From NCBI GenBank assembly GCA_938014335.1, contig CALLRP010000006.1, positions 14,226-78,225 on the forward strand: 64,000 nucleotides of DNA, given 5' to 3'. The position numbers and the translations under genes were made by a program. The notes under the pieces are model-generated. The model worked only from the letters and a program-made list of their open reading frames with translations. It was not told the origin of the DNA and did not search any database. Of this stretch, positions 17,468 through 64,000 are shown piece after piece. Every line of letters begins with the position of its first letter. Position 1 is the first letter of the stretch. The DNA comes from an uncultured bacterium. Its GTDB lineage: Bacteria; Hydrogenedentota; Hydrogenedentia; Hydrogenedentales; Hydrogenedentaceae.

Positions 17468-17564
17468 GTATGTAGTCATTTTTTGATTGAAATTTGAGTC
17501 AATAAAAAGTCTTTTCGTAAGATTAAGAGTATTTTCGATAATATTTAATAAAAAGGAAAATTTT

Positions 17565-18428: not shown

Positions 18429-18499
18429 TTGTTATATAATTACACATCTTTTCTACCCTTCTATATTTATACACTAAATTAAACTTTTAAAAATATTTT

Positions 18500-19297: not shown

Positions 19298-19331
19298 TTA
19301 CAAATAATCAAGTAGTAAAGGAGTATCATAT

Positions 19332-20192: not shown

Positions 20193-20278
20193 TTTTTTAT
20201 ATCAGAACACAGGCCTTGATTGAAAAACACAAAGTAGAACCCCTTTCGGAAAGAACGAACAATAAATGACTTTATTAT

Positions 20279-28119: not shown

Positions 28120-28314
28120 AACATCATTATATTAAATTTTAACCTGCCCATGGAGAGGATTTCGTTTGAGAAAGGCCGAAATTGTTTTTGTTTTTTGGCA
28201 ATTTTTTTTTGTGTAATAACGGTATTGCATAAGTCTGCCGAACCAAGGATGGTTTTTTTATGCCATATTTGGCAACTACCACGGCCAGAATAGATGATAA
28301 AAATTTTCTCCGAT

Positions 28315-43131: not shown

Positions 43132-43243
43132 AATCTTTTATAAACAATTTTTAATTTTTTTCGTTATATGATATAACGATTGTAAGATATTTAACCTTCA
43201 ATTACATAATTATAAACAATTGTTACTATTTTGGGGTGAATTT

Positions 43244-45254: not shown

Positions 45255-45274
45255 AGATAAAAGGAGTTTTTAAT

Positions 45275-45889: not shown

Positions 45890-45976
45890 TTTTCTTTTGT
45901 TTCATTTTACTTCTTTCCTATTAAACCATAAATTTTTGTATAATAATTATGAAAATAAGATATGGAGGCATTTTTC

Positions 45977-46129
45977 ATGAAAGAATTATTAAAGGAGTTT
46001 TGGGATTTCCTGAAAGTGAGAAAAAAGTATTGGCTGGCTCCTATTATTATTACGCTTTTATTATTGGCTGCTTTATTTATCTTTGCAGGAAATGCTGGCG
46101 TAATTTCCCCCTTTATCTATGCTTTATAA
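45977..46129 (+). CDS. 50-aa DUF5989-like small membrane protein (absent from the ORF track)
   Basis: The ATG at 45977 is preceded by GGAGG (45963-45967) and a TATAAT at 45939-45944. Translation: MKELLKEFWDFLKVRKKYWLAPIIITLLLLAALFIFAGNAGVISPFIYAL. From memory this closely matches the DUF5989 consensus (..EFW.FL..RKK.WL.PII..LLLL..L......S...PFIY). The 78-aa track ORF 45949-46185 is in another frame. Confidence 0.65.
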   Translation: MKELLKEFWDFLKVRKKYWLAPIIITLLLLAALFIFAGNAGVISPFIYAL

Positions 46130-46141
46130 GACAACCCTTAT

Positions 46142-49100
46142 GTGGGTTGCGCACTCTTTTTAGATTATTCATCATTTCTCCATAAAATACATAAGGAAAA
46201 ATGTGTGAAGGGAAGACAAGTTAGGTGTGCTTTATTCTTTATTCTTCTCATTGCTATTATTTTAAGAGTATGGTATCTTTATGAAGTATATAAATATGCC
46301 CCTGATTATTCAGCACTCCAGCAGGACCCGGAAGTTCAAGATTATTTTGCTCGTGCCATTGTAACAGGTGATTGGAGTGTCCCTGAAGGGGTTACCGACC
46401 CCGAGATGCGAACAACCCCTTTTTTCCGTCCACCAGGGCATGGTTATTTTTTAAGTTTTCTGTATCGATTCATTTCGGACAGTTATCTAACACCACGAAT
46501 TGTTAATTCTATCGCTGGCATTTTAACCGTTCTATTAGCATTTTATCTGGGTCGGGCGATTTTCAATGAATATGTGGGATTAATATTCAGTTTTTTAGTG
46601 GCTACCTACAGTGTATTTATATATTGGGAGGGGGAAGTAAATGATCCATCTCTATTTGTCTTTTTTGTTGTTCTCATGTTTTATATTTTGTATCGTTGGA
46701 GTATATACAAAAAATGGTATGAGTGTATTCTTTTGGGCTTGGTAATAGGTGCTTATGCAACTATGAGACCAAACATACTTTCATTTGGTCCTTTTATAGC
46801 CTTATGGATGGCATGGATTGTATTTAAAGAAAAGAAATATTTTGCGTTTATTCCTTCCTGGATTGTTCTCCTTGTTTTTACCTTTGTTCCCATTATACCA
46901 ATCACAGTGAGAAATTATATTGCTTCAGGGGAATGGGTATTCATCTCGACTTATTTTGGTGAAAATTTATTTATAGGGAACAATCCGGAAGCCGATGGAA
47001 CAACCCCATGGAACCAATACTTACAGAAATTAGAAGGAACAGGCAACTGGACTGCTCGCGATTATGTGAATGTGGTAAAAGGGTTGGGTAAAGAATTAGG
47101 AATAAAAGACCTGAAACATGCAGATGCATCAAAAATATTTGCAGAAAAAGCACTGGAATATATCAAAACACATCCTAAAGAAACACTTATACAAGTTTTG
47201 AAAAAAGCAGTTCTTCTTTGGTGTCCTATTGAAATTACATGCAACAAAGTGGTGTATTATGAATTAAAACATTACTCTCCGTTAAAATATCTTCCTACTT
47301 TTCCATGGGCGGGTGGCCTTTTCATTACAGGGACAATTTTGCTTGTTTCTAATATAAAATCTATCTGGAAAAAGAAAAAAATTGTTCCGTTTCTTTTCTC
47401 CTCAAATGGGACATATTCTACAGAGTTATTATTATTAATATACTTGTTTATTGCTACCTATTTAGGTAGTTTTCTCATTTTCTTTGTGAATGGAAGGGCA
47501 CGAGTCCCTGTTATTCCTTTATTTTTTTTAATAGGAGCCAATTTCCTTTATTTTTTGTGGCTATGTATTAAAAACAAAAATCATGTATCTTTAGTAAACT
47601 GGTTATCAGTTCTTTTTATTAGTTTTATTGTAATATCTGTGAAATGGATTCCTTTTGAGCCTGATTTAGCTCGATGGCATTATCAACGAGCAGATTCTTA
47701 TTTAAGAAGAGGAGAAATCCAAAAGGCATTAGAAGAAGCACAAACATTGGTTTATATGCCACAAAGTTTACCTTATATGCATCATCGTTTGGGAAAAGAC
47801 CTATTTAAAGCAGGTTACTTTGTAGAAGCTAAAGAGCAGTTTGAAAAAGGTATTCGATTAGACCCTACTTATCAAGATATGTTTTATTATCTCGGTAAAA
47901 CCTATCTTGTAATGAAAGATGAGACAAAGGCAGAAGAATATTTTAGAAAAGCACTTGAATTAAATCCAAATGATGCCCGTTCTCACAATGAAATTGGGGA
48001 AATTCTTGAGCATCAGGGAAATTGGAAAGAGGCTCTTACTCATTACGAAAAAGCTTTACAAATAGTCCCAGATTTTACTTATGTTTTAGATAAATACGGT
48101 AGAATATTATCTTCACAAGGACGCTCTGAAGATGCGTTGGCTTTTTATAGAAAGGCTTTAGAGACAGACCCTTCCTATCAGGATGTATATTACCTTATTG
48201 GAAGAGAGTTAAGAAGTTTAGGGCGAATTGAAGAGGCGCAAGATACACTCCAAAAAGCGGTAGAATTAAATCCAAAGGATGCAAGGGCACTGTGTGAATT
48301 AGGAAATATTTGTGCAGATGAGGGGGATTGGGATAGTGCAGAGGCGTATTATCGCAAAGCTGTCTCTGCGGTACCTGATTTTGCTTATGCTTATGAACGA
48401 TTAGGAAGAATCTTATTTGCAAAAGATAATTTGAAAGAATCTGAAAAGAATTTAAAAAAAGCGATTGAGTTGAATCCTGAATATCAGGATGGTATTTATC
48501 TTTTAGGTTGTGTTCTGAAAAAGGAAGGACGATTGGAAGAGGCAGAAACATATTTTCGGAGGGCATTAGAATTAAATGTTCGCGATGCACGAGCTTGGAA
48601 TGAATTAGGCGAGATTATGGAAACGAAAAAAGATTATGAGCAAGCACTTAACTGTTATGAAAAAGCATTGGAGGCATATCCTCAATTTGCTTATGTTATT
48701 GCAAAAATGGGTGCAATTTATGCTAACAGGGGAGAATATGAAAAATCGTTGGAAAAACTCAAATTAGCTTTGAACATTGACCCCAATTTCCAGAATGTCT
48801 GTTATATGACAGGGCAGGTACTATCCCGAATGGGACAAAAAGAGGAAGCGAAAGTATACTTTAATAAAGCCATAGAGATGAACCCCGAAGATGCAAGAGC
48901 TCATAGGGAATTAGCCTTGTTAATACAAGAAGATAATCCTGAAAAGGCAATAGAGCATTTCAAAAAGGCATTGGAAATCGTGCCCGATTTCACATTGATA
49001 TTGAATAATTGGGGTAGTCTTCTGGTTAAACAAAATCGTTGGGATGAAGCAGAAAATAAATTTTATGAGGCGTTGAAAATAAGACCCCATGATGAATTAG

Positions 49101-49975
49101 CGTACTACAATCTGGCACAGTTAGCAGAGAAAAAAGGGAATACAGAACAGGCGATTGAACTGTATAAAAAGGCAATGGTGAACAGTCCTGATAATTCGTA
49201 TATTCCGTATGATTTAGGTGTTTTATACGACCGTATGGGTAAAACACAAGAAGCAGAAGCAATGTATTACAAAGCACTAGAAGTAGATGATAAAAATCCA
49301 TTGGCATATAACAATTTAGGTTATCATGCCTTTCTATCAGGAGAAATAGATAAAGCGATAGAACTCTACCAAAAATCCTTATCTATCAAACCTGATTTAA
49401 TAAATGCTCTTTACAATCTTGCAGATGCATTTTTTTCAAAAGAGGAGTTAGAAAAAGTTATTCCTTATTTTGAGAAAGCATTAGAGATTCAACCTAAAGA
49501 CCATAATCTCCATAACGCCTTAGGTTTTTATGCCCTTCAAGTAGGCAAATTCGATTTAGCAGAGAAACACTTAAAGGAAGCAGTAAATTTACAACATGAA
49601 TTCCCACTTGCATGGAAAAATTTAGGGGATTTATATAAAGTTCAAAAAAGATATAGTGAAGCAGAACAAGCGTACAAAAAGGCAATAGAAATTTATCCCA
49701 GTGACGGAGAAGGTTGGGCAAGATATGCTATATTAAAGAAGGAAAAGGGTGATTATCAGGAATCTTTAGAATTATTTCAAGAAGCTTTAAAAAGATTGAA
49801 AGAAAGAGAAAGTCCACCAGAGCTAATTACAGAAGTTTTATTTGAAATAGGAGAAATATACCTTAAATGGGGTGATCAGGAAAATGTGAAGAAAATAATT
49901 ACAGAAATTACAAGATTGAACCCTGAAAATGATGAGATAAAACAAAGAATGAAACAAAAGGGATTCCCTGAATAA
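46142..49975 (+). CDS. GT-C glycosyltransferase (family 39 / ArnT / PMT_2-like membrane domain) fused to a long TPR array
   Basis: 1277 aa. The N-terminal ~500 aa are polytopic (FFRPPGHGYFLSFLYRF..., AGILTVLLAFYLGRAIF). From about residue 520 there are more than 20 tandem 34-aa TPR units (A..Y..AL.L.P....A...LG). The start is uncertain (GTG 46142 or GTG 46204). Confidence 0.85.
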   Translation: MGCALFLDYSSFLHKIHKEKCVKGRQVRCALFFILLIAIILRVWYLYEVYKYAPDYSALQQDPEVQDYFARAIVTGDWSVPEGVTDPEMRTTPFFRPPGHGYFLSFLYRFISDSYLTPRIVNSIAGILTVLLAFYLGRAIFNEYVGLIFSFLVATYSVFIYWEGEVNDPSLFVFFVVLMFYILYRWSIYKKWYECILLGLVIGAYATMRPNILSFGPFIALWMAWIVFKEKKYFAFIPSWIVLLVFTFVPIIPITVRNYIASGEWVFISTYFGENLFIGNNPEADGTTPWNQYLQKLEGTGNWTARDYVNVVKGLGKELGIKDLKHADASKIFAEKALEYIKTHPKETLIQVLKKAVLLWCPIEITCNKVVYYELKHYSPLKYLPTFPWAGGLFITGTILLVSNIKSIWKKKKIVPFLFSSNGTYSTELLLLIYLFIATYLGSFLIFFVNGRARVPVIPLFFLIGANFLYFLWLCIKNKNHVSLVNWLSVLFISFIVISVKWIPFEPDLARWHYQRADSYLRRGEIQKALEEAQTLVYMPQSLPYMHHRLGKDLFKAGYFVEAKEQFEKGIRLDPTYQDMFYYLGKTYLVMKDETKAEEYFRKALELNPNDARSHNEIGEILEHQGNWKEALTHYEKALQIVPDFTYVLDKYGRILSSQGRSEDALAFYRKALETDPSYQDVYYLIGRELRSLGRIEEAQDTLQKAVELNPKDARALCELGNICADEGDWDSAEAYYRKAVSAVPDFAYAYERLGRILFAKDNLKESEKNLKKAIELNPEYQDGIYLLGCVLKKEGRLEEAETYFRRALELNVRDARAWNELGEIMETKKDYEQALNCYEKALEAYPQFAYVIAKMGAIYANRGEYEKSLEKLKLALNIDPNFQNVCYMTGQVLSRMGQKEEAKVYFNKAIEMNPEDARAHRELALLIQEDNPEKAIEHFKKALEIVPDFTLILNNWGSLLVKQNRWDEAENKFYEALKIRPHDELAYYNLAQLAEKKGNTEQAIELYKKAMVNSPDNSYIPYDLGVLYDRMGKTQEAEAMYYKALEVDDKNPLAYNNLGYHAFLSGEIDKAIELYQKSLSIKPDLINALYNLADAFFSKEELEKVIPYFEKALEIQPKDHNLHNALGFYALQVGKFDLAEKHLKEAVNLQHEFPLAWKNLGDLYKVQKRYSEAEQAYKKAIEIYPSDGEGWARYAILKKEKGDYQESLELFQEALKRLKERESPPELITEVLFEIGEIYLKWGDQENVKKIITEITRLNPENDEIKQRMKQKGFPE

Positions 49976-49985
49976 CCTAAATTTA

Positions 49986-51182
49986 CTATTCAACGAGCTT
50001 ATTTAGATGATTACATACATATTTAACAGTATCTTCGGAAATTCCATCATAGAAAGGTAGGGCAAGCAATCGTGGATAAACATTATTTGCATTGGGACAG
50101 TTTGAATTTTCTATAAATACGGATACATTATCAATTACTTCTTCCCTCAATGCCGTATCAATTCCTCTAAAAAGAAGAGAACGACACATGTTTCGAGAAT
50201 CCATAGGGAGAATAACTACAAACATGTAATAAGATGGAGTACAATCGGGATGTACATAGGGAATATCAATTCTATCTGATAGAAATTTTCGATATAAACC
50301 GGCTATTTCATTCCGGTGCTCTACTCGTGAAGTAAGAAAGGGTAACTTTTCGATACCAATACTTGCTTGAAGAGGAGTAAACCGAATATTTTCAGGTGGA
50401 ACACTCTGAATCTTACGATATATAAACTCAAGTGATTTAAAAAAGAAAGGGAACAATCTAAAGAAAAGTATAGGATACATTAATCGTGAATTATAAAGAG
50501 TTTGTTCTAATTTTATCGATTTCGCTTTTTTAGTTATCTCCTTTGTGGTTAAAATTAATTTTTGGTTGTATTCCCCTACAAAATCAATAAGGGATGAATC
50601 CTTACTTACCAACATCCCCCCGCCATAAGTATTAATGGGTTTGGATATATCAAAACTAAAGAACCCCGCATATCCGAATGTCCCAGCATGCTGATTATTA
50701 ATTTTAGCCCCACATGCATGAGCGGTGTCTTCTATTACGGGAATATTATGTTCTTGTCCTATTTTACATAATTCTTCGATGTAGCAAGGATTTCCAAAAG
50801 TATGTAACGCGATAATGGCTTTGGTCTTTGAAGTTATAGAGTCTTGAACCAATTCAGGGTCAATATTTAATGTTTTGGGATTTATATCCACACAGATAGG
50901 TTTTAATCCCAATGACTGGATGATATTTACAAGTGCCTTTAATGTGAACGAAGGAATGATTACCTCATCATTCTTATGAAGCTTTAAATGTTGCAAAATG
51001 AGTTTGAGAGCCATCCGCCCCGATGGGAGAGCCACTGTGTATGGAGAGCCCAAAAAATCGCCAAACTCCCTTTCCCATCGAGAAACAATCCTATCATTGG
51101 ATAGTAAATCCAGAGAGGGATTTAGAACTTCTTTATATTCAGCAGGTAAAATATGTATCCATCTTCGTGGTATCATATACAC
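49986..51182 (-). CDS. DegT/DnrJ/EryC1/StrS-family (ArnB-like) PLP-dependent sugar aminotransferase
   Basis: 398 aa. PLP-lysine region FFSFDISKPINTYGGGMLV with the upstream motif IEDTAHACGA. Confidence 0.88.
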   Translation of the reverse strand: MYMIPRRWIHILPAEYKEVLNPSLDLLSNDRIVSRWEREFGDFLGSPYTVALPSGRMALKLILQHLKLHKNDEVIIPSFTLKALVNIIQSLGLKPICVDINPKTLNIDPELVQDSITSKTKAIIALHTFGNPCYIEELCKIGQEHNIPVIEDTAHACGAKINNQHAGTFGYAGFFSFDISKPINTYGGGMLVSKDSSLIDFVGEYNQKLILTTKEITKKAKSIKLEQTLYNSRLMYPILFFRLFPFFFKSLEFIYRKIQSVPPENIRFTPLQASIGIEKLPFLTSRVEHRNEIAGLYRKFLSDRIDIPYVHPDCTPSYYMFVVILPMDSRNMCRSLLFRGIDTALREEVIDNVSVFIENSNCPNANNVYPRLLALPFYDGISEDTVKYVCNHLNKLVE

Positions 51183-51205
51183 TCCAACTCTTAAAAGATA
51201 TAGTA

Positions 51206-52138
51206 ATGATTAATTTTATAAAAAGCAAAGACAAAATATTAAATGTTCTTCATATATCTGGTTTTGTCATTTTGATATTATTAACCTGTTTTGGAGTATA
51301 TCAGATACGAGAAGAAAATTTTGAAAATATAAAACATGTAATTGTAAATAGATGGGAACTATTCTTTTTAGCGTGTGTATTACGATTATTTGACTGGATT
51401 TTAGACTACTATTTGTGGCGATGTATGTTTAAAAATTTTTCTATCTCTTTCCCTTTTATAAAATCTATTTGGGTCTATCTCACTCAGGGTGCTGGAATTG
51501 TATTGCCGGCACAATTAGGCAGAGCATTAAGAGGATATATAATCACAAAAACAGTGAGCACACCCATCTCAAAAGCCATGACTGCGGAATTTTTGTTTTT
51601 ATTATGTGTTTTGGAAGGAGCATTTTTAGTTTTAATACTCTCATTAGCTATTTATACCAACACATTTGTATTGCCAATAATCCTTTCATTACTTTCATTA
51701 TTACTCTTCCCCTTTTTATTAAAATTCTTTAAACCTTTTCTGGCAAAGTTAAAAATAGGATTAACGGACAATGTAATTCGTCCTCCTTTTTTGATTTTAT
51801 TCTGCATAGGCTGTTCTATTGGGTGGGCAGTTAATGGCTTAATATTTTATCTTTTATTGGGAGGGAAAGAATCGGGACTATATTTAAGTCAAGTTGAAAT
51901 GATTGTTTTAGGAAACTTATTTTTAGCAATATGTAGTGGGATTCCTGGCGGAGTGGGAATTGTAGAAGCAACTATGAGTGTTTCATTACATTGGCTTCAG
52001 GTTCAATTACCCGAAATAATCCTTGTTATAGGGTTGTTCCGTATAATAACATTCTGGATTTGGATACCTTTAGGTTGGCTGGGTTTATTCCGTTTAAAAT
52101 TATATAAAAGTGTGGATTTAAAAGTAGATGTAGAATGA
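51206..52138 (+). CDS. Polytopic flippase-like membrane protein (UPF0104 / LPG-synthase-TM-like)
   Basis: ATG at 51206; the track start at 51023 would run antisense through the DegT 5' end. About 8 TM helices. The assignment rests on overall pattern only. ATGA overlap with the next gene. Confidence 0.6.
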   Translation: MINFIKSKDKILNVLHISGFVILILLTCFGVYQIREENFENIKHVIVNRWELFFLACVLRLFDWILDYYLWRCMFKNFSISFPFIKSIWVYLTQGAGIVLPAQLGRALRGYIITKTVSTPISKAMTAEFLFLLCVLEGAFLVLILSLAIYTNTFVLPIILSLLSLLLFPFLLKFFKPFLAKLKIGLTDNVIRPPFLILFCIGCSIGWAVNGLIFYLLLGGKESGLYLSQVEMIVLGNLFLAICSGIPGGVGIVEATMSVSLHWLQVQLPEIILVIGLFRIITFWIWIPLGWLGLFRLKLYKSVDLKVDVE

Positions 52139-53130
52139 AACAGAAAATAAAAAGTATTCCAATACTGTTGAAATCATGGGTAAAAACAAAAATTTTAGGA
52201 ATAAATGCGCCTTTATTTGTTGAGTGGAACCTAACTTTCCGATGCCCATATCAGTGCCTTTATTGTGGCTCTCGGGAAGTGACTGTTAATGAGTTAGATA
52301 CAAATGAAATATTGGAGCGGTTGAATATTTTACAAAAAATAGGTGTTAGATGGATTACCTTTGGTGGGGGAGAACCTTTAATTAAAAAAGACATAATAAA
52401 AATTCTTGAACATGCGAAATCGTTAGGGCTGAATGTTTTTTTAAGTTCCACAGGTGTCAATATAGAAAAGTACAATGGAATTGAAAAGTATGTTGACCAT
52501 ATAAATCTGAGTTTTGATGGGCCACAAGAAATACATGATAAAATTAGGGGTGAGAGGACTTATAATCGGTTATTTCAAGTAGTTGATTTTTGCAAGTCGA
52601 AGAATATTTCGGTGTCCTTTTTATGTGTTATATCCAAGTTAAATATTAATAAATTAGACTATGTTTTAGATAAGGCTAAAGAAGAAAATATAAAGGTAAT
52701 GTTTCAGCCAGCAACTTTACATTTAGATTCCTCTTTAACTCCAAATCCAATTGCTCCTGATAAAGACACATATGATAATGCGCTACAATATATTATGAAC
52801 AAGAAAAAACAAGGCTACCCTGTTCGTAATTCATTTGCAGGGTTAGAATATCTTAGGAACTGGCCGAACCCGTCAAGAATATGGTGTTCTGCTGGAAGAT
52901 TAACATGTACTATTGAACCGGATGGTACAATACTTTCCTGTCATTTATTTGAAACTCGTGAACTATATAAAAAGAAAGAAAACAAAGGAGATAATGAAGA
53001 ATTTGAAAAGATAATAAATCAGTTAAAAGTACCAAAAGGTTGCTCTACTTGCTGGTGTGCCCCTGTTGTTGAACTTGCTTTAATATGGAATTTAAATCCT
53101 TCTGCTATATGGAATGCACTCGGGATATAA
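52135..53130 (+). CDS. Radical SAM enzyme with Cys-rich (SPASM/twitch-like) C-terminus
   Basis: 331 aa. LTFRCPYQCLYC (CX3CX2C) and FGGGEPL. C-terminal cysteines CSAGRLTC...SCH...GCSTCWC. Confidence 0.8.
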   Translation: MKQKIKSIPILLKSWVKTKILGINAPLFVEWNLTFRCPYQCLYCGSREVTVNELDTNEILERLNILQKIGVRWITFGGGEPLIKKDIIKILEHAKSLGLNVFLSSTGVNIEKYNGIEKYVDHINLSFDGPQEIHDKIRGERTYNRLFQVVDFCKSKNISVSFLCVISKLNINKLDYVLDKAKEENIKVMFQPATLHLDSSLTPNPIAPDKDTYDNALQYIMNKKKQGYPVRNSFAGLEYLRNWPNPSRIWCSAGRLTCTIEPDGTILSCHLFETRELYKKKENKGDNEEFEKIINQLKVPKGCSTCWCAPVVELALIWNLNPSAIWNALGI

Positions 53131-53158
53131 AATGGTTTCTTTTTAGGATTAATTATTA

Positions 53159-54910
53159 ATGATAATATTAGGAATTAGTGAAGACTTTTTTGATGCAGGG
53201 GTTACCCTTTGTGATGATGAGTGGATATTATTCATGTCGAACGAGGAGCGATATACCCGCCAAAAAAATGAAGGTGGATTTCCACATTTATCATTAGAAA
53301 ATGCATTAAAACAAACAGGAATAACATGGAAAGATATACAGGCAGTATGTGTTTCTGGTTTTGTAACACCCTTCCCTTTTTTCCGATTATTTCCTAATTT
53401 ACAGAAAAAAGCATTTTGTTCAAAGAGAAAGAAAAATCAGAGTGACAAAAAATCGAACTACTGGGATAACATTACAGAATGGGCAGTCTCATATAATCCC
53501 ATAAGTTATATGAATCCTTCAGAGACGATGAAAAAAAGTTTATCTGTTATTTTAAGAAAAATAATACGAAAAAGATTACCCTTTCTTAATTCTGATGTTC
53601 CTATTCATTTCATCGAACACCATGAAGCCCATGCATGGGGAAGTTATTTCTGTTCTGGTTTTGATGAGGCACTTATTGTTACTGCAGATGGAATGGGGGA
53701 TGGCTTATCGTTGACTATTTCGAAAGGAGAAGGGAACTCGATAACCCGATTATGGAAATCCTCTGCTAAGAGTTCTTTTGGATTATTTTTTGAGAATCTG
53801 GCGGAAGTGTTAGGATTTGTCCCTTGTAGAGATGAAGGGAAACTTACAGGTTTATCAGCTCATGGAGATGCAAATAGAATTCAGTATGAAAATCCATTTT
53901 CATGGAATAATGATGTCCTCTTATACAAAGGACCCTACGGCAAAAAATTAAGAGAATGGCTTCTACAGTTATTACATGAATATTCGCGAGAAGACCTTTG
54001 TGCCTGGTCACAAAATATTTTAGAACAAATGCTATGTTCTTTAATTGAATATTGGTTAGATAGAACAGGGCTTAAAAAAATTGCTGTGGCTGGGGGAGTT
54101 TTTGCGAATGTGCTGTTAAACCAGAAAATACACGAATTGGAAAAGGTCGAAGAACTCTTTGTGTATCCGAATATGGGTGATGGAGGGTTGAGTTTAGGGG
54201 CTATCAGTGCACAACTCCGTTTTTATCCAAAACCTCTTCCGCATGCTTTCTGGGGGGATGGTTTTAGTAAAAAAGAAATAACGGGTGCAATTTCTAAATA
54301 TAAACTTCCATTTAAAGAATTCGATGAACAGGAAATACCCCAACTTGTTGCAAAGTGTTTGTATAACAAGAGAATTATTGCAAGATTTCATGGTAAAATG
54401 GAATGGGGACCTCGTGCTTTGGGAAATCGTTCTATTTTGTGTGATTCTACCATGAAAGATGTAACAGAAAAATTGAATAATATGTTAAAACGAAGTGATT
54501 TCATGCCGTTTGCACCTGCTTTATTAGATGAGGATGCAGGGCAATTTTTGATAGGATATGAAAAGGCAAGGCATGCAGGTGAATTTATGACATGCTGTTT
54601 TCAGAGTACTCCTAAAATGAAAGACCAACACGGTGCAGTTGTTCATATTGATGGAACAACACGAGCCCAACTTGTAAAAAAAGAGAATAACCCAACCTTT
54701 TATGAAATTTTAAAGGAATATAAAAAACTTTCAGGAACAAGTGTGGTTTTAAATACAAGTTTTAATATGCATGAATCGCCAATAATACGAACTCCTGAAG
54801 AAGCCTTACAAACATTTAAAGAGACTGATGTAGATTTTCTATTTTTAGAAAACTTTGTTATAGCAAAAACTCCGGATTTATGGAATGACTTTAGACAAAA
54901 TAGCAAATAA
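53159..54910 (+). CDS. NodU/CmcH-family carbamoyltransferase
   Basis: 583 aa. N-terminal ILGISEDFFDAGVTL, the metal-binding EHHEAHAWGS and a C-terminal catalytic region GPRALGNRSIL...VLNTSFNMHESPII. Confidence 0.9.
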   Translation: MIILGISEDFFDAGVTLCDDEWILFMSNEERYTRQKNEGGFPHLSLENALKQTGITWKDIQAVCVSGFVTPFPFFRLFPNLQKKAFCSKRKKNQSDKKSNYWDNITEWAVSYNPISYMNPSETMKKSLSVILRKIIRKRLPFLNSDVPIHFIEHHEAHAWGSYFCSGFDEALIVTADGMGDGLSLTISKGEGNSITRLWKSSAKSSFGLFFENLAEVLGFVPCRDEGKLTGLSAHGDANRIQYENPFSWNNDVLLYKGPYGKKLREWLLQLLHEYSREDLCAWSQNILEQMLCSLIEYWLDRTGLKKIAVAGGVFANVLLNQKIHELEKVEELFVYPNMGDGGLSLGAISAQLRFYPKPLPHAFWGDGFSKKEITGAISKYKLPFKEFDEQEIPQLVAKCLYNKRIIARFHGKMEWGPRALGNRSILCDSTMKDVTEKLNNMLKRSDFMPFAPALLDEDAGQFLIGYEKARHAGEFMTCCFQSTPKMKDQHGAVVHIDGTTRAQLVKKENNPTFYEILKEYKKLSGTSVVLNTSFNMHESPIIRTPEEALQTFKETDVDFLFLENFVIAKTPDLWNDFRQNSK

Positions 54911-55559
54911 TAAAAATGAAAGATTAAAAATTGCCATTATTGATTATTCCGCAGGGAATATCCATTCTGTATATCGTGCTTTTTCGAAGACAGGTGTCAT
55001 GATTGAGGTTATAAATAAGGAAACGGAGTTAGACCTATTTGATGCGGTTGTTTTGCCAGGGGTAGGTGCCTGTGCCAGTGCTATGGACTTTTTATCAAAG
55101 GTAGGACTTATAAAGAGATTAAACCACTATGTTTTAGAATTGAAAAAGCCTATTTTAGGGATTTGTTTAGGTTTTCAAATAATGGCAGAATTTAGTGAGG
55201 AAGGCGAAGCAAAAGGATTAGGTTGGATACCGGGACATGTCCGTTATATACGGAATGTTGTTCAAAATTTCATTCGCGTTCCACATATTGGCTGGAATGA
55301 TGTGAAAACTTACAAAGGAAGTTTATCTCTTCTGTCAGGGATGATAGATAATCCTAATTTTTATTTTGCTCATTCATACTTTATCCCAGCCAATAAAATC
55401 GAAGGAAACATTGGAATAACCGAATATGGAACGCCCTTTATTTCTTTATATCAAAATAAAAATATTTACGGCACTCAATTTCATCCCGAAAAAAGTTATA
55501 TTGGTGGTGCTATCTTAATCCAAAATTTTTTAAATGAGGTATGTAATGCTAAAAGTTAG
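54885..55559 (+). CDS. HisH-like glutamine amidotransferase subunit (glycan-cluster paralog, WbuY/HisH2 type)
   Basis: 224 aa. Motifs IAIIDYSAGN, the nucleophile GICLGFQ and QFHPEKS. It is paired with a HisF-like gene and an amidotransferase rather than with his genes. Confidence 0.88.
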   Translation: MTLDKIANNKNERLKIAIIDYSAGNIHSVYRAFSKTGVMIEVINKETELDLFDAVVLPGVGACASAMDFLSKVGLIKRLNHYVLELKKPILGICLGFQIMAEFSEEGEAKGLGWIPGHVRYIRNVVQNFIRVPHIGWNDVKTYKGSLSLLSGMIDNPNFYFAHSYFIPANKIEGNIGITEYGTPFISLYQNKNIYGTQFHPEKSYIGGAILIQNFLNEVCNAKS

Positions 55560-56364
55560 AGTAATACCGGTATTATTACTAAGACATTGGGGTCTGGAGA
55601 AGACCATCCAATTTACAAATCCTAAATATGTGGGGTGTCCAATTAATGCGGCTCGAGTTTTTAACCAGCATAATGTGGATGAACTTATATTGCTTGACAT
55701 AGTCGCGACACTTGAAAATCGTCCTCCGGAAATTGATGTTGTGAGGCAAATATCCGCAGAGACTTCAATGCCCTTCACAGTAGGAGGAGGAATTCGGGAT
55801 GTAGGCATTATACGAGAGTTATTAAAAGCGGGGGCAGATAAAGTAGTTTTAAATACCTCCGTTGTTGAAGTCCCCGGTTTGTTGGAAAAATCCGCAGAAC
55901 AATTTGGGCGACAATGTATTGTAGTATCCATAGATGTGAAAAAAGTTAATGGGACTTATGAGGTATTTACGCATGGAGGGAGGAAACCCGCAGGATTAAA
56001 CCCTGTAGAGTTGGCAATGAAGGCAGAGAAAGAAGGAGCCGGGGAAATATTAATTACAAGTATAGATAGAGATGGAACGCTCGAAGGTTATGACTTAGAT
56101 TTAATAAAAATGATTACAGAATCAGTTCAGATTCCTGTTATTGCTTGTGGTGGGGCTGGTTCTGTAAAAAATTTAGCAGATGCATACTATAAATCAGGGG
56201 CTTCTGCTGTAGCGTGTGGTGCATTTTTTCTCTTTTATGGTACTCGAAGGACAGTACTAATAACTTACCCATCCGAAGAACAATTGTTAGAGTATTTTGA
56301 GCCTCAACATGTTCGAAAAAGAGATCCCAAGAAACCTATTGATTTAGAATTAGCACGGTTATAA
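55546..56364 (+). CDS. HisF-like cyclase/ammonia-channel subunit (WbuZ/HisF2 type)
   Basis: ATG at 55546 is preceded by GAGG (55537-55540). Motifs RVIPVLLL, DELILLDI, TVGGGI and ACGGAGS fit a (beta/alpha)8 HisF family protein. Confidence 0.88.
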   Translation: MLKVRVIPVLLLRHWGLEKTIQFTNPKYVGCPINAARVFNQHNVDELILLDIVATLENRPPEIDVVRQISAETSMPFTVGGGIRDVGIIRELLKAGADKVVLNTSVVEVPGLLEKSAEQFGRQCIVVSIDVKKVNGTYEVFTHGGRKPAGLNPVELAMKAEKEGAGEILITSIDRDGTLEGYDLDLIKMITESVQIPVIACGGAGSVKNLADAYYKSGASAVACGAFFLFYGTRRTVLITYPSEEQLLEYFEPQHVRKRDPKKPIDLELARL

Positions 56365-56381
56365 CGGATATAGGTGGTGTT

Positions 56382-57533
56382 ATGATTCAGCAAAATGAAG
56401 AAAAAGTTTTATGTAAACGGTGTGTGATGGATACTTCTATTCCAGGCGTTCGTTTAGACAAACAGGGAATATGTAACTTTTGCCACATGCATAATAATTT
56501 AGATAAACGATTCCCTGTGGGAGAAGAAGGAGCAAAAATATTACAAAAGATTGCTAATAAAATAAGAAAAGATGGCAAAGGGAAAAGATACGATTGTGTC
56601 GTTGGAGTAAGTGGGGGAAGAGATACATCTTATTGTTTATATTATGTGAAAGAAGTTATGAATCTACGTCCTCTGGCTGTTCATTTTGACAACGGTTGGG
56701 ATTCCGAAATTGCAAAGAGTAATCTTGCTAAATTATGTGATAAATTAGATGTAGAATTGCACACGATAATTATGGACTGGCCTGAATCCCGCGAACTAAC
56801 AAATGCAACTATTAGAGCATGTGTACCTTATATAGACTTAACGGACGATATCGGAATTGCGAGTAGTTTATACCGAACCGCTGTCGAAGAAAATGTCCGC
56901 TATATCATTCTAAGTCATTCTTTTCGTGAAGAAGGGATAACCCCACTGAAATGGAATTACATAGATGGAAAATATACCCGTGCTATTGTAGACCAGTTTT
57001 GTACAATTCCATTAATACATTTTGAGAATGTAGAACTCTGGGATATGATTTACTGGATATTGTGGAGGGGAATTCGTGTAATTAATATAACAAATTATTA
57101 TGACGATACAGGGGAAAAAATAGAGACATTTCTTAAAGAAAAGTTTGATTGGCAGGATACAGGACAACACCATTTGGATAATGAATTATTTACATTAGTT
57201 TATTATTATGCAAGAAGAAAATTTGGTTTCGATTGGCGCGTAGTTGAATTATCCGCAAAAGTTAGAACCGGTGTAATTTCTCGAGAGTCTGCTTTGAAAG
57301 CGTTACAAGAAATTCCTTTTTTTGAGGATGAAGAAAGGATAGAACATTGTTTAAGAAAACAAGGTATAAGTCGAGAAGAATTTGAGATGATAGTTAAATC
57401 ACCCAATAAATATTTTACAGATTATCCGTCTTACTATCCCTTGCTACGAAAGTTTAAATGGTTTATATGGATTTTATGTAAACTTCATGCTATACCAGCA
57501 CATACTTATGAAAAATATTTTCATGCTATCTGA
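56382..57533 (+). CDS. N-acetyl sugar amidotransferase (PP-loop ATPase, WbuX/WbpG/PseA-like)
   Basis: 383 aa. N-terminal zinc ribbon CKRC...CNFC and the PP-loop VGVSGGRDTSY. It lies immediately downstream of the HisH/HisF-like pair. Confidence 0.8.
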   Translation: MIQQNEEKVLCKRCVMDTSIPGVRLDKQGICNFCHMHNNLDKRFPVGEEGAKILQKIANKIRKDGKGKRYDCVVGVSGGRDTSYCLYYVKEVMNLRPLAVHFDNGWDSEIAKSNLAKLCDKLDVELHTIIMDWPESRELTNATIRACVPYIDLTDDIGIASSLYRTAVEENVRYIILSHSFREEGITPLKWNYIDGKYTRAIVDQFCTIPLIHFENVELWDMIYWILWRGIRVINITNYYDDTGEKIETFLKEKFDWQDTGQHHLDNELFTLVYYYARRKFGFDWRVVELSAKVRTGVISRESALKALQEIPFFEDEERIEHCLRKQGISREEFEMIVKSPNKYFTDYPSYYPLLRKFKWFIWILCKLHAIPAHTYEKYFHAI

Positions 57534-57583
57534 AATTAAACTTAAATCGGTATATAATTTTATTTTAATTAGGTATACGGTAA

Positions 57584-59023
57584 ATGAAGAAAAAAAGATT
57601 ATTTTTAGTTAATCTGGGTTTGAGAAGACCACTATATCCATTAGCCACTCCTCCGATGGGGCTTTTGTATCTTTCGGCGTATCTACGCCGTGAATTGAAA
57701 GACATTGAAATAGGTATAATAAACCAGAGGTTGGAAAATTGTAATATTGAAGAATTATGTGAAAGAATCAAGACTTTTGAACCCGACATTATTGGTATAT
57801 CTACTTTTACCACTTTTGCTTATTTACTTCCTTTGTTAGTCCCAATGCTTCGAAGTGCTTGTCCCAAAGCATGGATTATTGTTGGAGGACCCCATGCTTC
57901 AGCTGTGCGTAAAGGTGTATTTGATGATGTAGATATAGATATTTTAGTGCCAGGTGAGGGCGAAATTGCTTTAAAACAAATAATAGAAAGTTTTCCAGAA
58001 AGGGAATCGTTACAAAATATAAACGGGATTTACTGGAAAGATAAATCAGGAGAGGTAATTCAGAACCCAGGATTATTGCCTATGATTGAGAATTTAGATG
58101 AATTGCCTTTTCCCGCTTATGATTTAATTGATTTGCCCCGTTATTGGAAACATCAGTCTATTGCCCCTATAGTAAGAAGGAAATATGCCTCACTTGTAAG
58201 TAGTCGGGGGTGTCCTTATCAATGTATGTGGTGTCATTCTATTTTTGGAAGACGAATCCGAATGCATTCTGCTGAACGAGTTGTAGATGAAATCGAATAT
58301 TTGGGAAAAGAATACAATATCACCGATTTTGAGTTTTTAGATGATAACTTTAATTTTAACTCGAAGCGAGTAATAGAGATTGCAGAACTTATTCATAAAC
58401 GAGGCTTAAAAACAGAAATTGCTTTTCCCACCGCAATTCGAGGAGATTTAGCAACTCAGGAAGTTATAGATGCGATGCATTCTATAGGTACATATCTTTG
58501 TGGCTACTCATTAGAGACAGGGTCTCCTCGGCTACAAAAATTTACCTGTAAAAGACTGGATATTCCCAAATTTTTAAATGCGGTAGAAATGACAGCCAAA
58601 AAGAACATCTACATTACAGGTTTCTGTATGATGGGATTTCCTACTGAGACCGAAGAAGAACTACAACAAACTATAGATGTAGCATGTAAATCTCGTTTTC
58701 ATACCGCTAGTTTCTTTACAGTAACCCCATTCCCCGGAACCCCTCTCTTTGAATGGGTAAAAGAAAATCGTCCTGAAAAATTATCACAATTGAATTATAA
58801 CAACATGGATTTCTCAGCAATGAATGTAAATTTAACAGACTTGCCTGACGAAGTCCTTTTTGCCTATCAGCGTAAAGCTATGAAAAAGTTTTATACCGAC
58901 CCCATTCGTATTTATCGACTATTGAGAAGTTATCCCAAACCCCTGCTATTGCCCTATTATCTCCCCATCTTTATCCATCGAGCCACCAAAGGACTATGGA
59001 AATCTCAAACAATTAATTGTTAA
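57584..59023 (+). CDS. Class-B (cobalamin-binding-domain) radical SAM enzyme
   Basis: 479 aa. B12-binding-like region (DIIGISTFTTFAYLL...AWIIVGGPHAS) and the rSAM motif SSRGCPYQCMWC. Confidence 0.85.
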   Translation: MKKKRLFLVNLGLRRPLYPLATPPMGLLYLSAYLRRELKDIEIGIINQRLENCNIEELCERIKTFEPDIIGISTFTTFAYLLPLLVPMLRSACPKAWIIVGGPHASAVRKGVFDDVDIDILVPGEGEIALKQIIESFPERESLQNINGIYWKDKSGEVIQNPGLLPMIENLDELPFPAYDLIDLPRYWKHQSIAPIVRRKYASLVSSRGCPYQCMWCHSIFGRRIRMHSAERVVDEIEYLGKEYNITDFEFLDDNFNFNSKRVIEIAELIHKRGLKTEIAFPTAIRGDLATQEVIDAMHSIGTYLCGYSLETGSPRLQKFTCKRLDIPKFLNAVEMTAKKNIYITGFCMMGFPTETEEELQQTIDVACKSRFHTASFFTVTPFPGTPLFEWVKENRPEKLSQLNYNNMDFSAMNVNLTDLPDEVLFAYQRKAMKKFYTDPIRIYRLLRSYPKPLLLPYYLPIFIHRATKGLWKSQTINC

Positions 59024-61272
59024 ACTGTGAATGGTATCCTTATAAGATTATAATTCTTAAACAGGGCTTTTTGGTGGGAAACAATAAAGAAAAAAAATAT
59101 AATATTCAAGTCTTATTGAGTTGTTTCCTTATCATTTTATTAGCTTTCATCATCCGAATTTACAAAATTTCCGATGAATCGATATGGTGGGATGAGTATT
59201 CCAGTCTGGCTCACATAAATGCAGACTCTTTATCAGAGTTCCTTTTTTTAAATCCTCTTTATGACCCCGCCACCATGCCAGCCTATTATATTATAGAATA
59301 CCTTTTCTGGCACTATATATCTCCTTCTGTTTTAGGTTTGCGGTTCTTTTCTGTCTTATTGAGTATAATGACCATCCCTATTTTATTTCTCATCGGTAGA
59401 AAATTAGGTTCCTATAAAATAGGATTAATAGCGGGTCTATTTTTCGCTCTCTCACCGATACATCGTTTTTTTGGACAGGGGATACGAATGTATGTTTTAT
59501 TAACTTTACTTTTTACTTTGTCAGTATATTATTTACTTTCATATCTCGAAGAGAACAAAAAGAAAAACGGGATTATTCTGACTATAGTAAACTTTATCCT
59601 TTTGTGGACTCATCCCTTTGCAATTCTGATTATTGGTATAGAAATGTTTTGTTTTCTCATTGCTCATAAAGTAAGAGGATATAAAAAATATATCTTGTTT
59701 TTTTCTCAAACAATTATAAGTATCCCTCCTTTATTTTATATGTTGAATATAAAATATTATTCAACAGAGAAATCTTTCTGGTTCAAAATACCAAGTCTAT
59801 ATGAGTTTATTGGGGATTTATTTGCTGATGATGCGGTAGGTTTGACATATCAGGTACGAATTATTAATGAAATTATCCCTGATTATTTGAGAACAATACA
59901 TCCTTTTATGGACTTATCTTTATTAGTCATAAATGTTGGAATAATTCTATTTAGTTTAGGGTATGTTTTGAAAAACCTAAAAGATGAAAACGAATTAAAG
60001 GGCAAAATCACTTTTCTTATTTTGATGTTTTTAATCCCACCTATGTTTTTATATGTCATTTCAATTCTATGGAGGCCTTGTATATTCCCAAGATACACAC
60101 TTTATAGTAGTCTCGCTATATATTTGCTTTATGGATGTTTTATACATATAATAAATAATAAATATCTAAAAAAATCAATATTATTTTTGTTAATAGCTAT
60201 TTTTGGTTATCAGTTATTTATTACAATTCCGTTACCTCAACGTACAAATTGGCAAGAAACTTCTCGTTTTATTGAACAATCCTTTCCACCAGAGGGAGAG
60301 AAATCCCCCGTGTTTGTATATCAAGCCATTAATAAAGATGTTTTTTCTTTTAATTTAAAAGATAAAACAATCCCTGTTTCCTTTGTAGAAAAAGTTGATA
60401 CTCTTATCCCTATTTTTCAAGAACTGTTTCAAAAGGATACCAATTGTTTTTGTTCTGAAGTATGGTTTGTGCATGTTTCTTTCTATTTTGCTGAATACGG
60501 CTCTCCGGAGTTAGAACGATTGTTGGACGAGAATAAAATGGCTTATAAATATTACGACTTCTACGGAATAGAACCTATTCGATTATACAGAATTACACCT
60601 ATGGAAGGTGTTGCATATCCTAATTTGAATCTGAAAGCCTTATCTGATGAGATGTTGAAATTTACAATTTCGGATTTAGCCCTTTCTTATGTTGAGACTG
60701 GGTATAAAGAATGTGCGATATATTTACTTGAAAAATTAATGAATGACCCTCTCCAAAGATTACAGTATAAAAATTTATATAATGCACAAAAAAATGATAA
60801 GAATGTCTACAATCTTGCAAATGCCTTACGGTATTACCAGATAAGCCAGAGAAGTATAGACCCAAAGTATAAGGAATACTTCTTAAATAAGGCTATTGAA
60901 CGGGATGCAGATTTGAAACTGGCTTATTTATGTTTTGACGCGATTATGACTTCAATAGAAGGAGATATCAATACCACTCATGAAAAACTTTACCGTATTA
61001 TTGACATGGCTCCTGACCTTGCTCTTCCAAGAATTGCTCTGGGAGTGATTGCCTTATCGCAGAACAGGGAAGAAGATGCCAAAAAATGGCTTTATTCCGC
61101 TATAGAGTGTGAAAAGGGACATTACAAAAGTTGGGAAAATCTATTAAATTTCATTTTTATAGAGAAAAATTACTCCAAGGCATTGGAAGAATATCATGCC
61201 CTTCAAGATAAAGGTATATTTGTAGAAACTTATTTTGAAGAATACTTAACCGAAAAGATACAAAATAAATAA
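59017..61272 (+). CDS. GT-C glycosyltransferase-like polytopic protein (family 39/PMT_2-like) with C-terminal TPR-like helical domain
   Basis: 751 aa. Early periplasmic-loop acidic motif (DESIWWDEYSS) and about 11 TM helices. The C-terminal ~200 aa are helical repeats. The start is uncertain (TTG/GTG around 59071-59076 is possible). Confidence 0.72.
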   Translation: MLNCEWYPYKIIILKQGFLVGNNKEKKYNIQVLLSCFLIILLAFIIRIYKISDESIWWDEYSSLAHINADSLSEFLFLNPLYDPATMPAYYIIEYLFWHYISPSVLGLRFFSVLLSIMTIPILFLIGRKLGSYKIGLIAGLFFALSPIHRFFGQGIRMYVLLTLLFTLSVYYLLSYLEENKKKNGIILTIVNFILLWTHPFAILIIGIEMFCFLIAHKVRGYKKYILFFSQTIISIPPLFYMLNIKYYSTEKSFWFKIPSLYEFIGDLFADDAVGLTYQVRIINEIIPDYLRTIHPFMDLSLLVINVGIILFSLGYVLKNLKDENELKGKITFLILMFLIPPMFLYVISILWRPCIFPRYTLYSSLAIYLLYGCFIHIINNKYLKKSILFLLIAIFGYQLFITIPLPQRTNWQETSRFIEQSFPPEGEKSPVFVYQAINKDVFSFNLKDKTIPVSFVEKVDTLIPIFQELFQKDTNCFCSEVWFVHVSFYFAEYGSPELERLLDENKMAYKYYDFYGIEPIRLYRITPMEGVAYPNLNLKALSDEMLKFTISDLALSYVETGYKECAIYLLEKLMNDPLQRLQYKNLYNAQKNDKNVYNLANALRYYQISQRSIDPKYKEYFLNKAIERDADLKLAYLCFDAIMTSIEGDINTTHEKLYRIIDMAPDLALPRIALGVIALSQNREEDAKKWLYSAIECEKGHYKSWENLLNFIFIEKNYSKALEEYHALQDKGIFVETYFEEYLTEKIQNK

Positions 61273-61277
61273 TTCAA

Positions 61278-63840: not shown

Positions 63841-63846
63841 ATCTCC

Positions 63847-64000
63847 TTAATTTGTAGCATTTAGATTTTTATAATTTGTCCATTTTCTTAAGCTTAGTTT
63901 AAACCAATAATTAAATGCCCTTATTTGATTTTTCAAATGATGAGGACGGCGTATCGTTCTCACGATCGTTCTTGCAAAATAACGAGGTCTAAGATAATAT
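63847..64000 (-). CDS. Possible 3' end of an unidentified gene continuing beyond the window
   Basis: The minus-strand frame is open from the window edge and translates as ...RPRYFARTIVRTIRRPHHLKNQIRAFNYWFKLSLRKWTNYKNLNATN*. The stop at 63847-63849 abuts the SD of the next gene. Only 50 codons are visible. Confidence 0.3.
   Translation of the reverse strand, partial: YYLRPRYFARTIVRTIRRPHHLKNQIRAFNYWFKLSLRKWTNYKNLNATN

Follow-up and report, generated by a model that had tools for sequence, protein, structure and literature searches.

Three-component systems of extracytoplasmic glycosylation use a family 2 glycosyltransferase (GT2) to make a polyprenyl-phosphate sugar, which is flipped and then transferred by a glycosyltransferase of the GT-C fold, as in GtrA/GtrB/Gtr* of Shigella and Salmonella and in the GT136 system of Citrobacter (PMC11127046). 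In animals, the TMTC1-4 enzymes of protein O-mannosylation have a GT-C domain followed by a lumenal array of tetratricopeptide repeats (TPRs) (PMC7801869). Here we analyze a locus in a 64 000-nucleotide stretch of contig CALLRP010000006.1 (hereafter, the window) from a Candidatus Hydrogenedens bacterium, an uncultivated member of the Hydrogenedentota with a diderm envelope. A block of eleven genes at 45977-61272 encodes two GT-C-fold glycosyltransferases with TPR arrays (GTC1 and GTC2), a flippase-like membrane protein, a set of sugar-tailoring enzymes that includes two radical S-adenosylmethionine (SAM) enzymes, and a small membrane peptide. The preliminary description of this block, made from the sequence alone, placed the cluster within these coordinates, but a convergent operon starts 5 nt past 61272 and runs off the window. 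Most likely, therefore, about 18 kb of a composite envelope-glycosylation locus lies in the window, and the locus as a whole, which continues past the window edge, measures at least 25 kb. We give roughly an even chance to the reading that these genes form one integrated three-component periplasmic glycosylation system with a rich sugar-tailoring set. Understood in this way, the locus is an elaborate variant of the known scheme and not a wholly new kind of system. A literature search found no description of this combination of carbamoyltransferase, N-acetyl sugar amidotransferase and radical SAM genes, which agrees with the preliminary description, where the combination was not recognized from described loci. 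The window also encodes an AcrB/HlyD/OEP efflux system, and the Raetz lipid A pathway is present in >94% of Hydrogenedentota genomes (PMC11406978), so a periplasm and lipopolysaccharide (LPS) can be assumed.

The proposed system would draw on three sets of genes. The first comprises a DPMS/ArnC/AglJ-like GT2 just outside the window, which would load the sugar onto polyprenyl phosphate, the flippase-like protein of the LPG_synthase_TM family, and several GT-C-TPR transferases, two in the window and at least one beyond it. The second is devoted to cytoplasmic tailoring, with a DegT aminotransferase, a WbuX/Y/Z-type amidotransferase, a NodU/CmcH carbamoyltransferase, one SPASM/twitch radical SAM enzyme (rSAM1) and two B12-radical-SAM enzymes, while the third consists of two secreted proteins, an alpha/beta-hydrolase and an orphan. 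A sugar of the N-acetyl-hexosamine type would be aminated, amidinated, carbamoylated and modified by radical SAM chemistry in the cytoplasm, either as a nucleotide sugar or once on the lipid carrier. The lipid-linked sugar would then be flipped across the inner membrane, and the GT-C/TPR enzymes would transfer it in the periplasm to envelope acceptors (protein, LPS or other polymer) selected by their TPR arrays. The substrate, the order of the steps, the role of the flippase-like protein and the acceptor are the parts of this scheme that we infer.

The locus resembles the Gtr-type systems in its GT2 of the polyprenyl-phosphate sugar synthase class and its GT-C enzymes of predicted periplasmic action, with a membrane protein that may flip the donor, and its auxiliary enzymes for editing the donor may be compared with the epimerases of the pentofuranose systems. 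It differs from them in that the putative flippase belongs to LPG_synthase_TM rather than to the GtrA, SMR or MATE type, and in that up to four GT-C paralogues, all fused to TPRs, take the place of enzymes that carry carbohydrate-binding modules. The auxiliary set is also far larger, including three radical SAM enzymes, and no O-antigen backbone locus lies nearby. The block had been called Arn-like, which is apt for the logic of a lipid-linked donor, flipping and periplasmic GT-C transfer. Like the Arn system (PmrHFIJKLM), the locus has a DegT-family aminotransferase, a GT2 of the class that loads polyprenyl phosphate and GT-C enzymes at the periplasmic face. It does not itself belong to the Arn system, as ArnE/F is absent, domains of ArnA (dehydrogenase/decarboxylase/formyltransferase) and of the ArnD deformylase occur neither in 45977-64000 nor in the off-window genes of loci L084 and L088, and the families that are shared score far under the equivalog cutoffs (136.7 versus 631 for ArnB, 45.9 versus 529 for ArnC). 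ArnT, moreover, is without a TPR domain.

The two GT-C/TPR proteins are the core of the block. GTC1 (46142..49975, plus strand; 1277 aa) matches PMT_2 (PF13231) at residues 96-247 with 37.8 bits against a cutoff of 26.1 when its N-terminal 560 aa are scanned, and continues into a long array with at least 16 TPR_1 stretches. GTC2 (59074..61272, plus strand; 732 aa) is borderline for PMT_2 (25.0-25.9 bits versus the same cutoff), and its Pfam TPR matches are weak; in its AlphaFold model, an alpha/beta domain comes after the GT-C fold, and about 5-6 TPR-like helical repeats make up the C-terminus. PDB sequence searches with the GT-C domains returned only designed TPRs and no ArnT sequence match. 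Because these searches were uninformative for both proteins, we used homologue alignments and a fold search with the AlphaFold models (pLDDT 90.2 for GTC1 and 89.8 for GTC2). All Foldseek matches of the GTC2 model at E <= 0.001 are GT-C enzymes (STT3, Pmt4, ArnT, PglB and others), and the resemblance to ArnT is about equal to that for PMT, OST and ALG enzymes, so that the fold cannot tell them apart. The catalytic acidic loop of GT-C enzymes, which had been named beforehand as a test, is kept in both proteins. In the homologue alignments, the first periplasmic loop of GTC1 begins with an invariant D62, and GTC2 has a 'WWDE' motif in that loop, in which W38 and D40 are invariant and W39 and E41 near-invariant, as well as invariant D248, D252 and D253 in the fourth periplasmic loop. 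Each model has 11 transmembrane (TM) helices, with Lys/Arg concentrated on short loops of the predicted cytoplasmic side. By this positive-inside charge pattern, both TPR regions lie in the periplasm, as do the catalytic loops and the alpha/beta domain of GTC2. As modelled, GTC1 and GTC2 are thus GT-C-fold enzymes with catalytic loops and TPRs facing the periplasm, and the preliminary description of two proteins that join these domains is borne out.

Relatives of GTC1 and GTC2 carry the record names 'glycosyltransferase family 39' or 'ArnT family'. The pairing of a polyprenyl-phosphate sugar synthase with PMT_2-type GT-C enzymes is shared with actinobacterial Ppm1/Pmt, fungal PMTs and TMTC1-4. 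GTC2 has the D40-E41 pair after TM1 found in Pmt enzymes, and GTC1 has D62 only. Neither protein has the MIR domain of PMTs, TPRs being present instead, so that they fall outside the PMT type. The donor would also differ, being presumably a heavily modified amino sugar here and mannose in the PMT and TMTC enzymes. A GT-C membrane domain combined with an extracytoplasmic TPR array is the likeness of both proteins to the TMTCs, and it is one of architecture, no TMTC structure being among the fold-search matches. By analogy with the TMTCs, the TPR arrays suggest protein or polymer acceptors, with lipid A or LPS equally available.

Among the tailoring genes, those of the carbamoyltransferase and amidotransferase families pass the cutoffs of their models. 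NodU/CmcH enzymes carbamoylate hydroxyls from carbamoyl phosphate, and the product of 53159..54910 (plus strand) is, by its domain matches, a bona fide member of this family with Kae1-like N-terminal and YrdC-like C-terminal domains. Its Carbam_trans_N (PF02543, 102 bits) and Carbam_trans_C (PF16861, 192 bits) matches both pass their cutoffs, and its PDB relatives include NovN, TobZ and GdmN at E 1e-54 to 1e-62, with 8e-62 for NovN. Its nearest relatives, 76-82% identical, come from Candidatus Hydrogenedens metagenome-assembled genomes, including Ca. H. terephthalaticus. WbuX/Y/Z-type complexes convert an N-acetyl into an acetamidino group, and three contiguous genes on the plus strand encode such subunits, all passing NCBIfam cutoffs: a HisH-type glutaminase subunit that is WbuY-like (54885..55559; TIGR01855, 197.6 bits versus 105.4), an AglZ/HisF2/WbuZ cyclase-like subunit of acetamidino-forming amidotransferases (55546..56364; NF038364, 322.4 bits versus 310, with 285 bits on TIGR03572 WbuZ) and a WbuX-type PP-loop N-acetyl sugar amidotransferase (56382..57533; TIGR03573, 224.6 bits versus 203.2) with an SGGRDT PP-loop variant and an N-terminal CxxC...CxxC. 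Judged by these models, HisH-HisF-WbuX is a bona fide WbuXYZ/AglXYZ-type amidotransferase. Histidine biosynthesis as an alternative role for the HisH and HisF genes is ruled out by the AglZ/HisF2 equivalog pass and the adjacency of WbuX. In having all three subunits, the locus resembles the WbuXYZ/AglXYZ/PseA/WbpG systems (FucNAm of E. coli O145; the archaellin N-glycan of Methanococcus maripaludis), and in the archaeal Agl pathway a GT-C enzyme, AglB, moves the lipid-linked glycan to protein in the last step. What sets the locus apart from those systems is that its amidotransferase genes share a single run with carbamoyltransferase, radical SAM and PMT_2-type GT-C genes, and that nonulosonic-acid or uronic-acid biosynthesis genes are absent.

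The remaining tailoring enzymes can be placed at the family level. DegT enzymes aminate keto-sugars, and the DegT/DnrJ/EryC1 sugar aminotransferase (49986..51182, minus strand; PF01041, E 6e-68) scores under every NCBIfam equivalog cutoff (for PseC, 159 versus 423), its match to the ArnB model NF008658 spanning residues 35-201 only; the best PDB relatives are scyllo-inosose aminotransferases (e.g. BtrR), QdtB and WbpE. Since neither an enzyme forming the keto intermediate nor an N-acetyltransferase was found in the locus, a UDP-HexNAc precursor is the simplest guess. The rSAM1 protein (52135..53130, plus strand) has a CPYQCLYC motif and a SPASM/twitch-like auxiliary-cluster C-terminus with five invariant Cys (C251, C269, C303, C306 and C308), and its best PDB profile matches are the SPASM/twitch enzymes CteB, PqqE, SkfB and anSME. 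SPASM/twitch enzymes include alcohol dehydrogenases, anSME among them. That rSAM1 is a BtrN-like alcohol dehydrogenase feeding the DegT enzyme is only a possibility, BtrN not being among the PDB profile matches. B12-radical-SAM enzymes methylate or rearrange unactivated carbons; the one in the block (57584..59023, plus strand) has B12-binding and Radical_SAM domains and a CPYQCMWC motif, falls below all NCBIfam cutoffs (128.9 bits on the HpnJ model) and has AprD4 and TokK as its best PDB relatives.

Outside the eleven-gene block, the convergent operon supplies the proposed donor synthase. Its last gene, on the minus strand like the others, encodes a secreted alpha/beta-hydrolase with a signal-peptide-like N-terminus and matches to GCE_fung and Peptidase_S9, resembling glucuronoyl esterases and S9 peptidases (61278..62351), which is syntenic in L006, L008, L084 and L093-L101. 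Upstream of it lies a secreted orphan of 489 aa (62365..63834), also with a signal-peptide-like N-terminus, which had no match in Pfam, NCBIfam or PDB and stands between the hydrolase and a second B12-radical-SAM enzyme (B12rSAM2) in all loci seen. Only the 3' end of the B12rSAM2 gene, about 50 codons, is in the window (63841..64000), where it is cut by the edge; the translation of these last 160 nt matches the C-terminus of a 486-aa B12-radical-SAM protein in L084. The far end of the operon in the window organism is inferred from L084. The same sample yielded the 6.3-kb contig L088, which encodes first the C-terminal end of a PMT_2-TPR protein, then a 383-aa GT2 and B12rSAM2, and lastly the orphan and the hydrolase. 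In L084/L085, whose orthologues share 59-86% identity with those encoded here, the convergent operon has upstream of it a sigma-54 two-component system and genes for two PMT_2-TPR proteins of 730 and 881 aa. This adjacent GT2 has a weak GT2_TM_C match, its best PDB relatives are the Pyrococcus DPMS 5mlz, ArnC and GtrB, and its best NCBIfam matches are AglJ, PpgS, dolichyl-phosphate hexose transferase and ArnC, all under equivalog cutoffs. By these resemblances it is an enzyme of the polyprenyl-phosphate-sugar synthase class that is physically linked to the locus, and it is the likeliest donor-forming synthase. The preliminary description had looked for the donor source in a GT2 at 13318-14307, which is ArnC/PgfS-like and flanked by a PP2C phosphatase and a TauE exporter; its distance of 32 kb and unrelated neighbours argue against it as the best candidate, and the GT2 of the convergent operon is about 47 kb nearer. 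Inside 45977-61272, the ORF (open reading frame) map and HMM (hidden Markov model) scans found no GT-A/GT-B transferase, Wzx/Wzy/Wzz or dehydratase, as had been reported, but this does not extend to the whole locus, which has the adjacent GT2 just past the window end.

B12rSAM2 is HpnJ/BchE-like, with a nearly full-length match of 188.9 bits to TIGR03471 (HpnJ) against a cutoff of 577.6 and 186 bits to BchE, also under its cutoff. The GT2 lies immediately upstream of it in L006, L010, L084, L088 and L090, five loci from at least four lineages. This tight adjacency and the HpnJ-like character of B12rSAM2 hint at tailoring on the lipid-linked sugar. The flippase-like protein (51206..52138, plus strand), the sole flippase candidate, matches PF03706 with E 2e-17 and the TIGR00374 flippase-like domain with 28 bits, under the cutoff, and it is not of the GtrA, SMR or MATE type.

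For all eleven genes, the coordinates and family identities of the preliminary description agree with our ORF map and HMM scans, and the remaining ORFs of at least 60 aa in 45977-61272 are all nested within these genes. The junctions are short throughout. The 50-aa DUF5989 small membrane peptide (45977..46129, plus strand; PF19451, E 6e-20) ends 12 nt before GTC1, GTC1 and DegT converge with 10 nt between them, and the divergent gap between DegT and the flippase-like gene is exactly 23 nt, as first described. From the flippase-like gene through GTC2, the spacings in gene order are -4, +28, -26, -14, +17, +50 and +50 nt, so the overlapping and abutting junctions are also as first described, with the HisH gene overlapping its neighbours on both sides. 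GTC2 and the hydrolase gene are convergent with stop codons 5 nt apart (61272-61278), which leaves no space for a terminator between them. A promoter and terminator scan of 45200-64000 gave counts not above those of shuffles and was uninformative on operon structure.

Relatives L004-L008 and L093-L101, with proteins that share 38-100% identity with the window's, keep the gene order and orientation. In these close relatives, L004-L008 being genome loci and L093-L101 metagenome loci, the whole arrangement extends from the ExbB and DUF5989 genes through the convergent operon, and L084 represents its right-hand end. In L004-L008, the DUF5989 peptide is encoded immediately 5' of GTC1 with 92-100% conservation; our literature search found no mention of this family. 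L008 and L100/L101 have the first, in-window B12-radical-SAM gene, which L006 and L093-L095 lack. In L004 (Ca. Hydrogenedens sp. KM4344-31), only fragments of the B12-radical-SAM gene (32% of its length) and GTC2 (14%) follow WbuX at 14414-15180, and a 63%-identical GTC2 homologue is located elsewhere on the same contig, which suggests deletion, rearrangement or misassembly. A metagenome survey anchored on rSAM1 homologues, with a minimum length of 8 kb, gave 41 loci, of which 38 scored rSAM1-positive. Alongside rSAM1 in these 38 loci, the carbamoyltransferase was found in 27, the flippase-like and DegT genes in 16 each and WbuX in nine. Immediately 5' of rSAM1, the flippase-like gene occurs in 16 of the 41 loci. 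In other combinations, L010/L104 have the flippase-like, rSAM1, CmcH, HisH, HisF and WbuX genes convergent with GT2 and B12rSAM2, and L106 adds DegT and two B12-radical-SAM genes to this set. L076 has CmcH, DegT, an rSAM-SPASM enzyme, a membrane sulfatase-family protein, two PMT_2 genes and a B12-radical-SAM gene. L090 has a GT2, a B12-radical-SAM gene, a second GT2, an rSAM-SPASM gene, three PMT_2 genes, LPG_synthase_TM and another B12-radical-SAM gene, with no carbamoyl or amidino genes, and in L089 and L091 a PMT_2 protein is paired with a B12rSAM2 homologue. The B12rSAM2 family is the element common to both kinds of module. The gene context around a 41%-identical B12-radical-SAM gene in L092 is unrelated, so that the association weakens at this degree of divergence. 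The re-association of modules in different orders (L010, L076, L090 and L106) favours a functional link between them without proving it.

The preliminary description had tied its proposal to the genes not being separately conserved in relatives, and on this the loci are divided: the cluster is syntenic in close relatives, but in more distant Hydrogenedentota it splits into separable modules, with the trio of flippase-like, rSAM1 and CmcH genes occurring without a detectable GT-C. Several observations of this kind weigh against a single integrated system. GT-C genes were found in only nine of the 41 metagenome loci, each a close relative of the window with an rSAM1 identity of 67% or more, a count to be read with the limited sensitivity of the family-specific HMMs, which divergent GT-C enzymes may escape and which detected only one of the two PMT_2 genes of L076. 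The trio lies behind an MFS transporter in L115 and L109 with no glycosyltransferase nearby, and directly downstream of a GT9 gene (LPS-core-type, cytoplasmic) in L019. L116 and L117 have a stand-alone CmcH-DUF5989-rSAM1 island (~6244-10900) amid unrelated genes for a sialidase-like protein, an M19 dipeptidase and cytochrome c552; DUF5989, lying there between the carbamoyltransferase and rSAM1, thus travels with that pair and not only with GT-C genes. The lack in the locus of both a keto-sugar-forming enzyme, whose product DegT would use, and an N-acetyltransferase counts on the same side, and we know of no member of the LPG_synthase_TM family demonstrated to flip polyprenyl-phosphate sugars. 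These data lend themselves to an explanation by independent modules, in which the flippase-like, rSAM1, CmcH, HisH, HisF, WbuX and DegT genes would make a decorated nucleotide sugar or modify the LPS core or an exopolysaccharide conventionally, and GT2, B12-radical-SAM and GT-C-TPR genes would be a separate periplasmic kit with a simpler donor. It would account for the trio alone or with WbuXYZ in L010, L019, L109, L115, L116 and others where GT-C was undetected, for the GT9 gene of L019, and for the GT2/B12-radical-SAM/PMT_2/LPG_synthase_TM kit without CmcH or WbuX in L090. The nearest CmcH homologues outside the phylum, from Marinobacter at 35% identity, are in a Bac_transf/Wzy/GT2/GT4 exopolysaccharide cluster, and characterized WbuXYZ, PseA and WbpG relatives serve O-antigen or nonulosonic-acid pathways. 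The window lineage itself, however, has tailoring genes, a B12-radical-SAM gene and GTC2 in one run with overlapping or short junctions, and its block has no cytoplasmic GT-A/GT-B that would consume a nucleotide sugar and no Wzx, Wzy or ABC exporter. B12rSAM2 homologues are found beside both kinds of module (L010/L104 and L106 versus L084, L089, L090 and L091), and L076 combines CmcH, DegT and rSAM with two PMT_2 genes. On balance we hold independent modules to be somewhat unlikely, though a serious contender; if they are the correct explanation, the locus is a dense but ordinary neighbourhood of envelope genes.

Two further explanations would change the product altogether. The order of GT2 immediately before B12rSAM2 in the five loci named above, with HpnJ as the best NCBIfam match of B12rSAM2, nearly full-length at 189 bits, recalls the hopanoid side-chain system of HpnI (a GT2), HpnJ (a B12-radical-SAM enzyme of ring contraction), HpnK and HpnL, as does the flippase-like protein, since HpnL belongs to the same LPG_synthase_TM family (bioRxiv 10.1101/2025.07.29.667474). 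In a modification of membrane-lipid head groups along these lines, the GT2 would glycosylate a lipid and the B12-radical-SAM enzyme would rearrange the sugar on it, with no polyprenyl-phosphate carrier. The likeness is at the family level only: the HpnJ score is far under its cutoff and nearly equalled by BchE, the flippase-like protein missed the HpnL model and the GT2 missed HpnI, and no squalene-hopene cyclase, HpnH, HpnK-like or other hopanoid core genes were seen in the window or the examined loci. The GT-C enzymes, which have no Hpn counterpart, would also be left without a role, because such enzymes by definition use lipid-phosphate-linked donors, and we regard this explanation as improbable. 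A secondary-metabolite cluster whose product is a small molecule resembling an aminoglycoside or aminocyclitol seems more improbable still. It would fit the best solved relatives, which come from antibiotic pathways (BtrR-type scyllo-inosose aminotransferases for DegT, AprD4 for the B12-radical-SAM enzyme, NovN/TobZ for the carbamoyltransferase), and the DUF5989 peptide in that the saxitoxin carbamoyltransferase is also accompanied by short ORFs of unknown function (PMC2885083). These similarities are at the family level and far under equivalog cutoffs, however, and no cyclitol synthase, soluble GT-B, resistance or export gene was seen. Membrane GT-C enzymes with periplasmic TPRs dominate the locus, which is a conserved chromosomal feature of the lineage, and CmcH has its closest homologues beyond the phylum in polysaccharide clusters. 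A DUF5989 relative may be among the short ORFs near the saxitoxin carbamoyltransferase.

If the linkage of these modules in an integrated periplasmic glycosylation system is functional, the three-component (Gtr/Arn/Pmt-type) scheme would be extended by donors edited through radical SAM, amidino and carbamoyl chemistry, and bacterial GT-C enzymes would choose acceptors via long TPR arrays as animal TMTCs do. The locus would also give a first handle on the envelope chemistry of the Hydrogenedentota, a widespread uncultivated phylum, and would offer the carbamoyltransferase, amidotransferase and B12-radical-SAM enzymes, acting on lipid-linked or nucleotide sugars, as candidates for glyco-engineering. 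We consider unlikely, but worth stating, a stronger form of this proposal in which radical SAM chemistry belongs, as a fourth and integral component, to a lineage-specific family of periplasmic glycosylation systems. It builds on the GT2-B12rSAM2 pair of the five loci named above, which is accompanied by a SPASM-type radical SAM enzyme, an LPG_synthase_TM protein and several PMT_2(-TPR) GT-C enzymes. The lipid-linked sugar would then be C-methylated or rearranged, and here also amidinated and carbamoylated, before flipping, with TPR-guided attachment to envelope proteins or LPS by GT-C enzymes to follow. Such an envelope decoration would be without described counterpart.

Additional observations concern paralogues and neighbouring genes. 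PMT_2-TPR proteins and HpnJ/BchE-like B12-radical-SAM proteins each occur in several paralogues per genome in Hydrogenedentota, for example P0018 and P0049, which share a 254-kb contig, or P0130 and P0189, which share a chromosome of 5.1 Mb. This points to a lineage-specific expansion. The sulfatase-family protein of L076 (14246-16501, minus strand; 751 aa) is encoded between the rSAM-SPASM gene and the two PMT_2 genes and has its sulfatase-family domain at residues 311-615. We take this layout to be like that of EptA/LtaS-like enzymes, in which case a related locus would encode a further transferase that faces the periplasm. L019, on a complete Hydrogenedentes chromosome, has three tandem copies of a pair of 366-aa and 165-aa ORFs with no Pfam match (14017-20323) after its HisF-like gene. 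In the window, a TonB_2-like protein (weak match) and a MotA/ExbB-family protein are encoded directly 5' of the DUF5989 peptide at 43220-45889 (plus strand); all close relatives have ExbB-DUF5989-GTC1 in synteny, and an ExbD-like gene was not observed. A few kilobases upstream of the locus on the same strand are genes for an FHA-GAF-adenylate/guanylate cyclase (40870-42510) and an 846-aa HEAT-repeat protein (38250-40790). Farther away, at 22994-29292 on the minus strand, a Memo+AMMECR1 fusion (26554-28119) is located beside a radical SAM gene (28315-29292) and a gene for a 1187-aa FMN_bind/Fer4_5 membrane protein (22994-26557), an arrangement that we take to resemble the 'AmmeMemoRadiSam' trio with two of its members fused.

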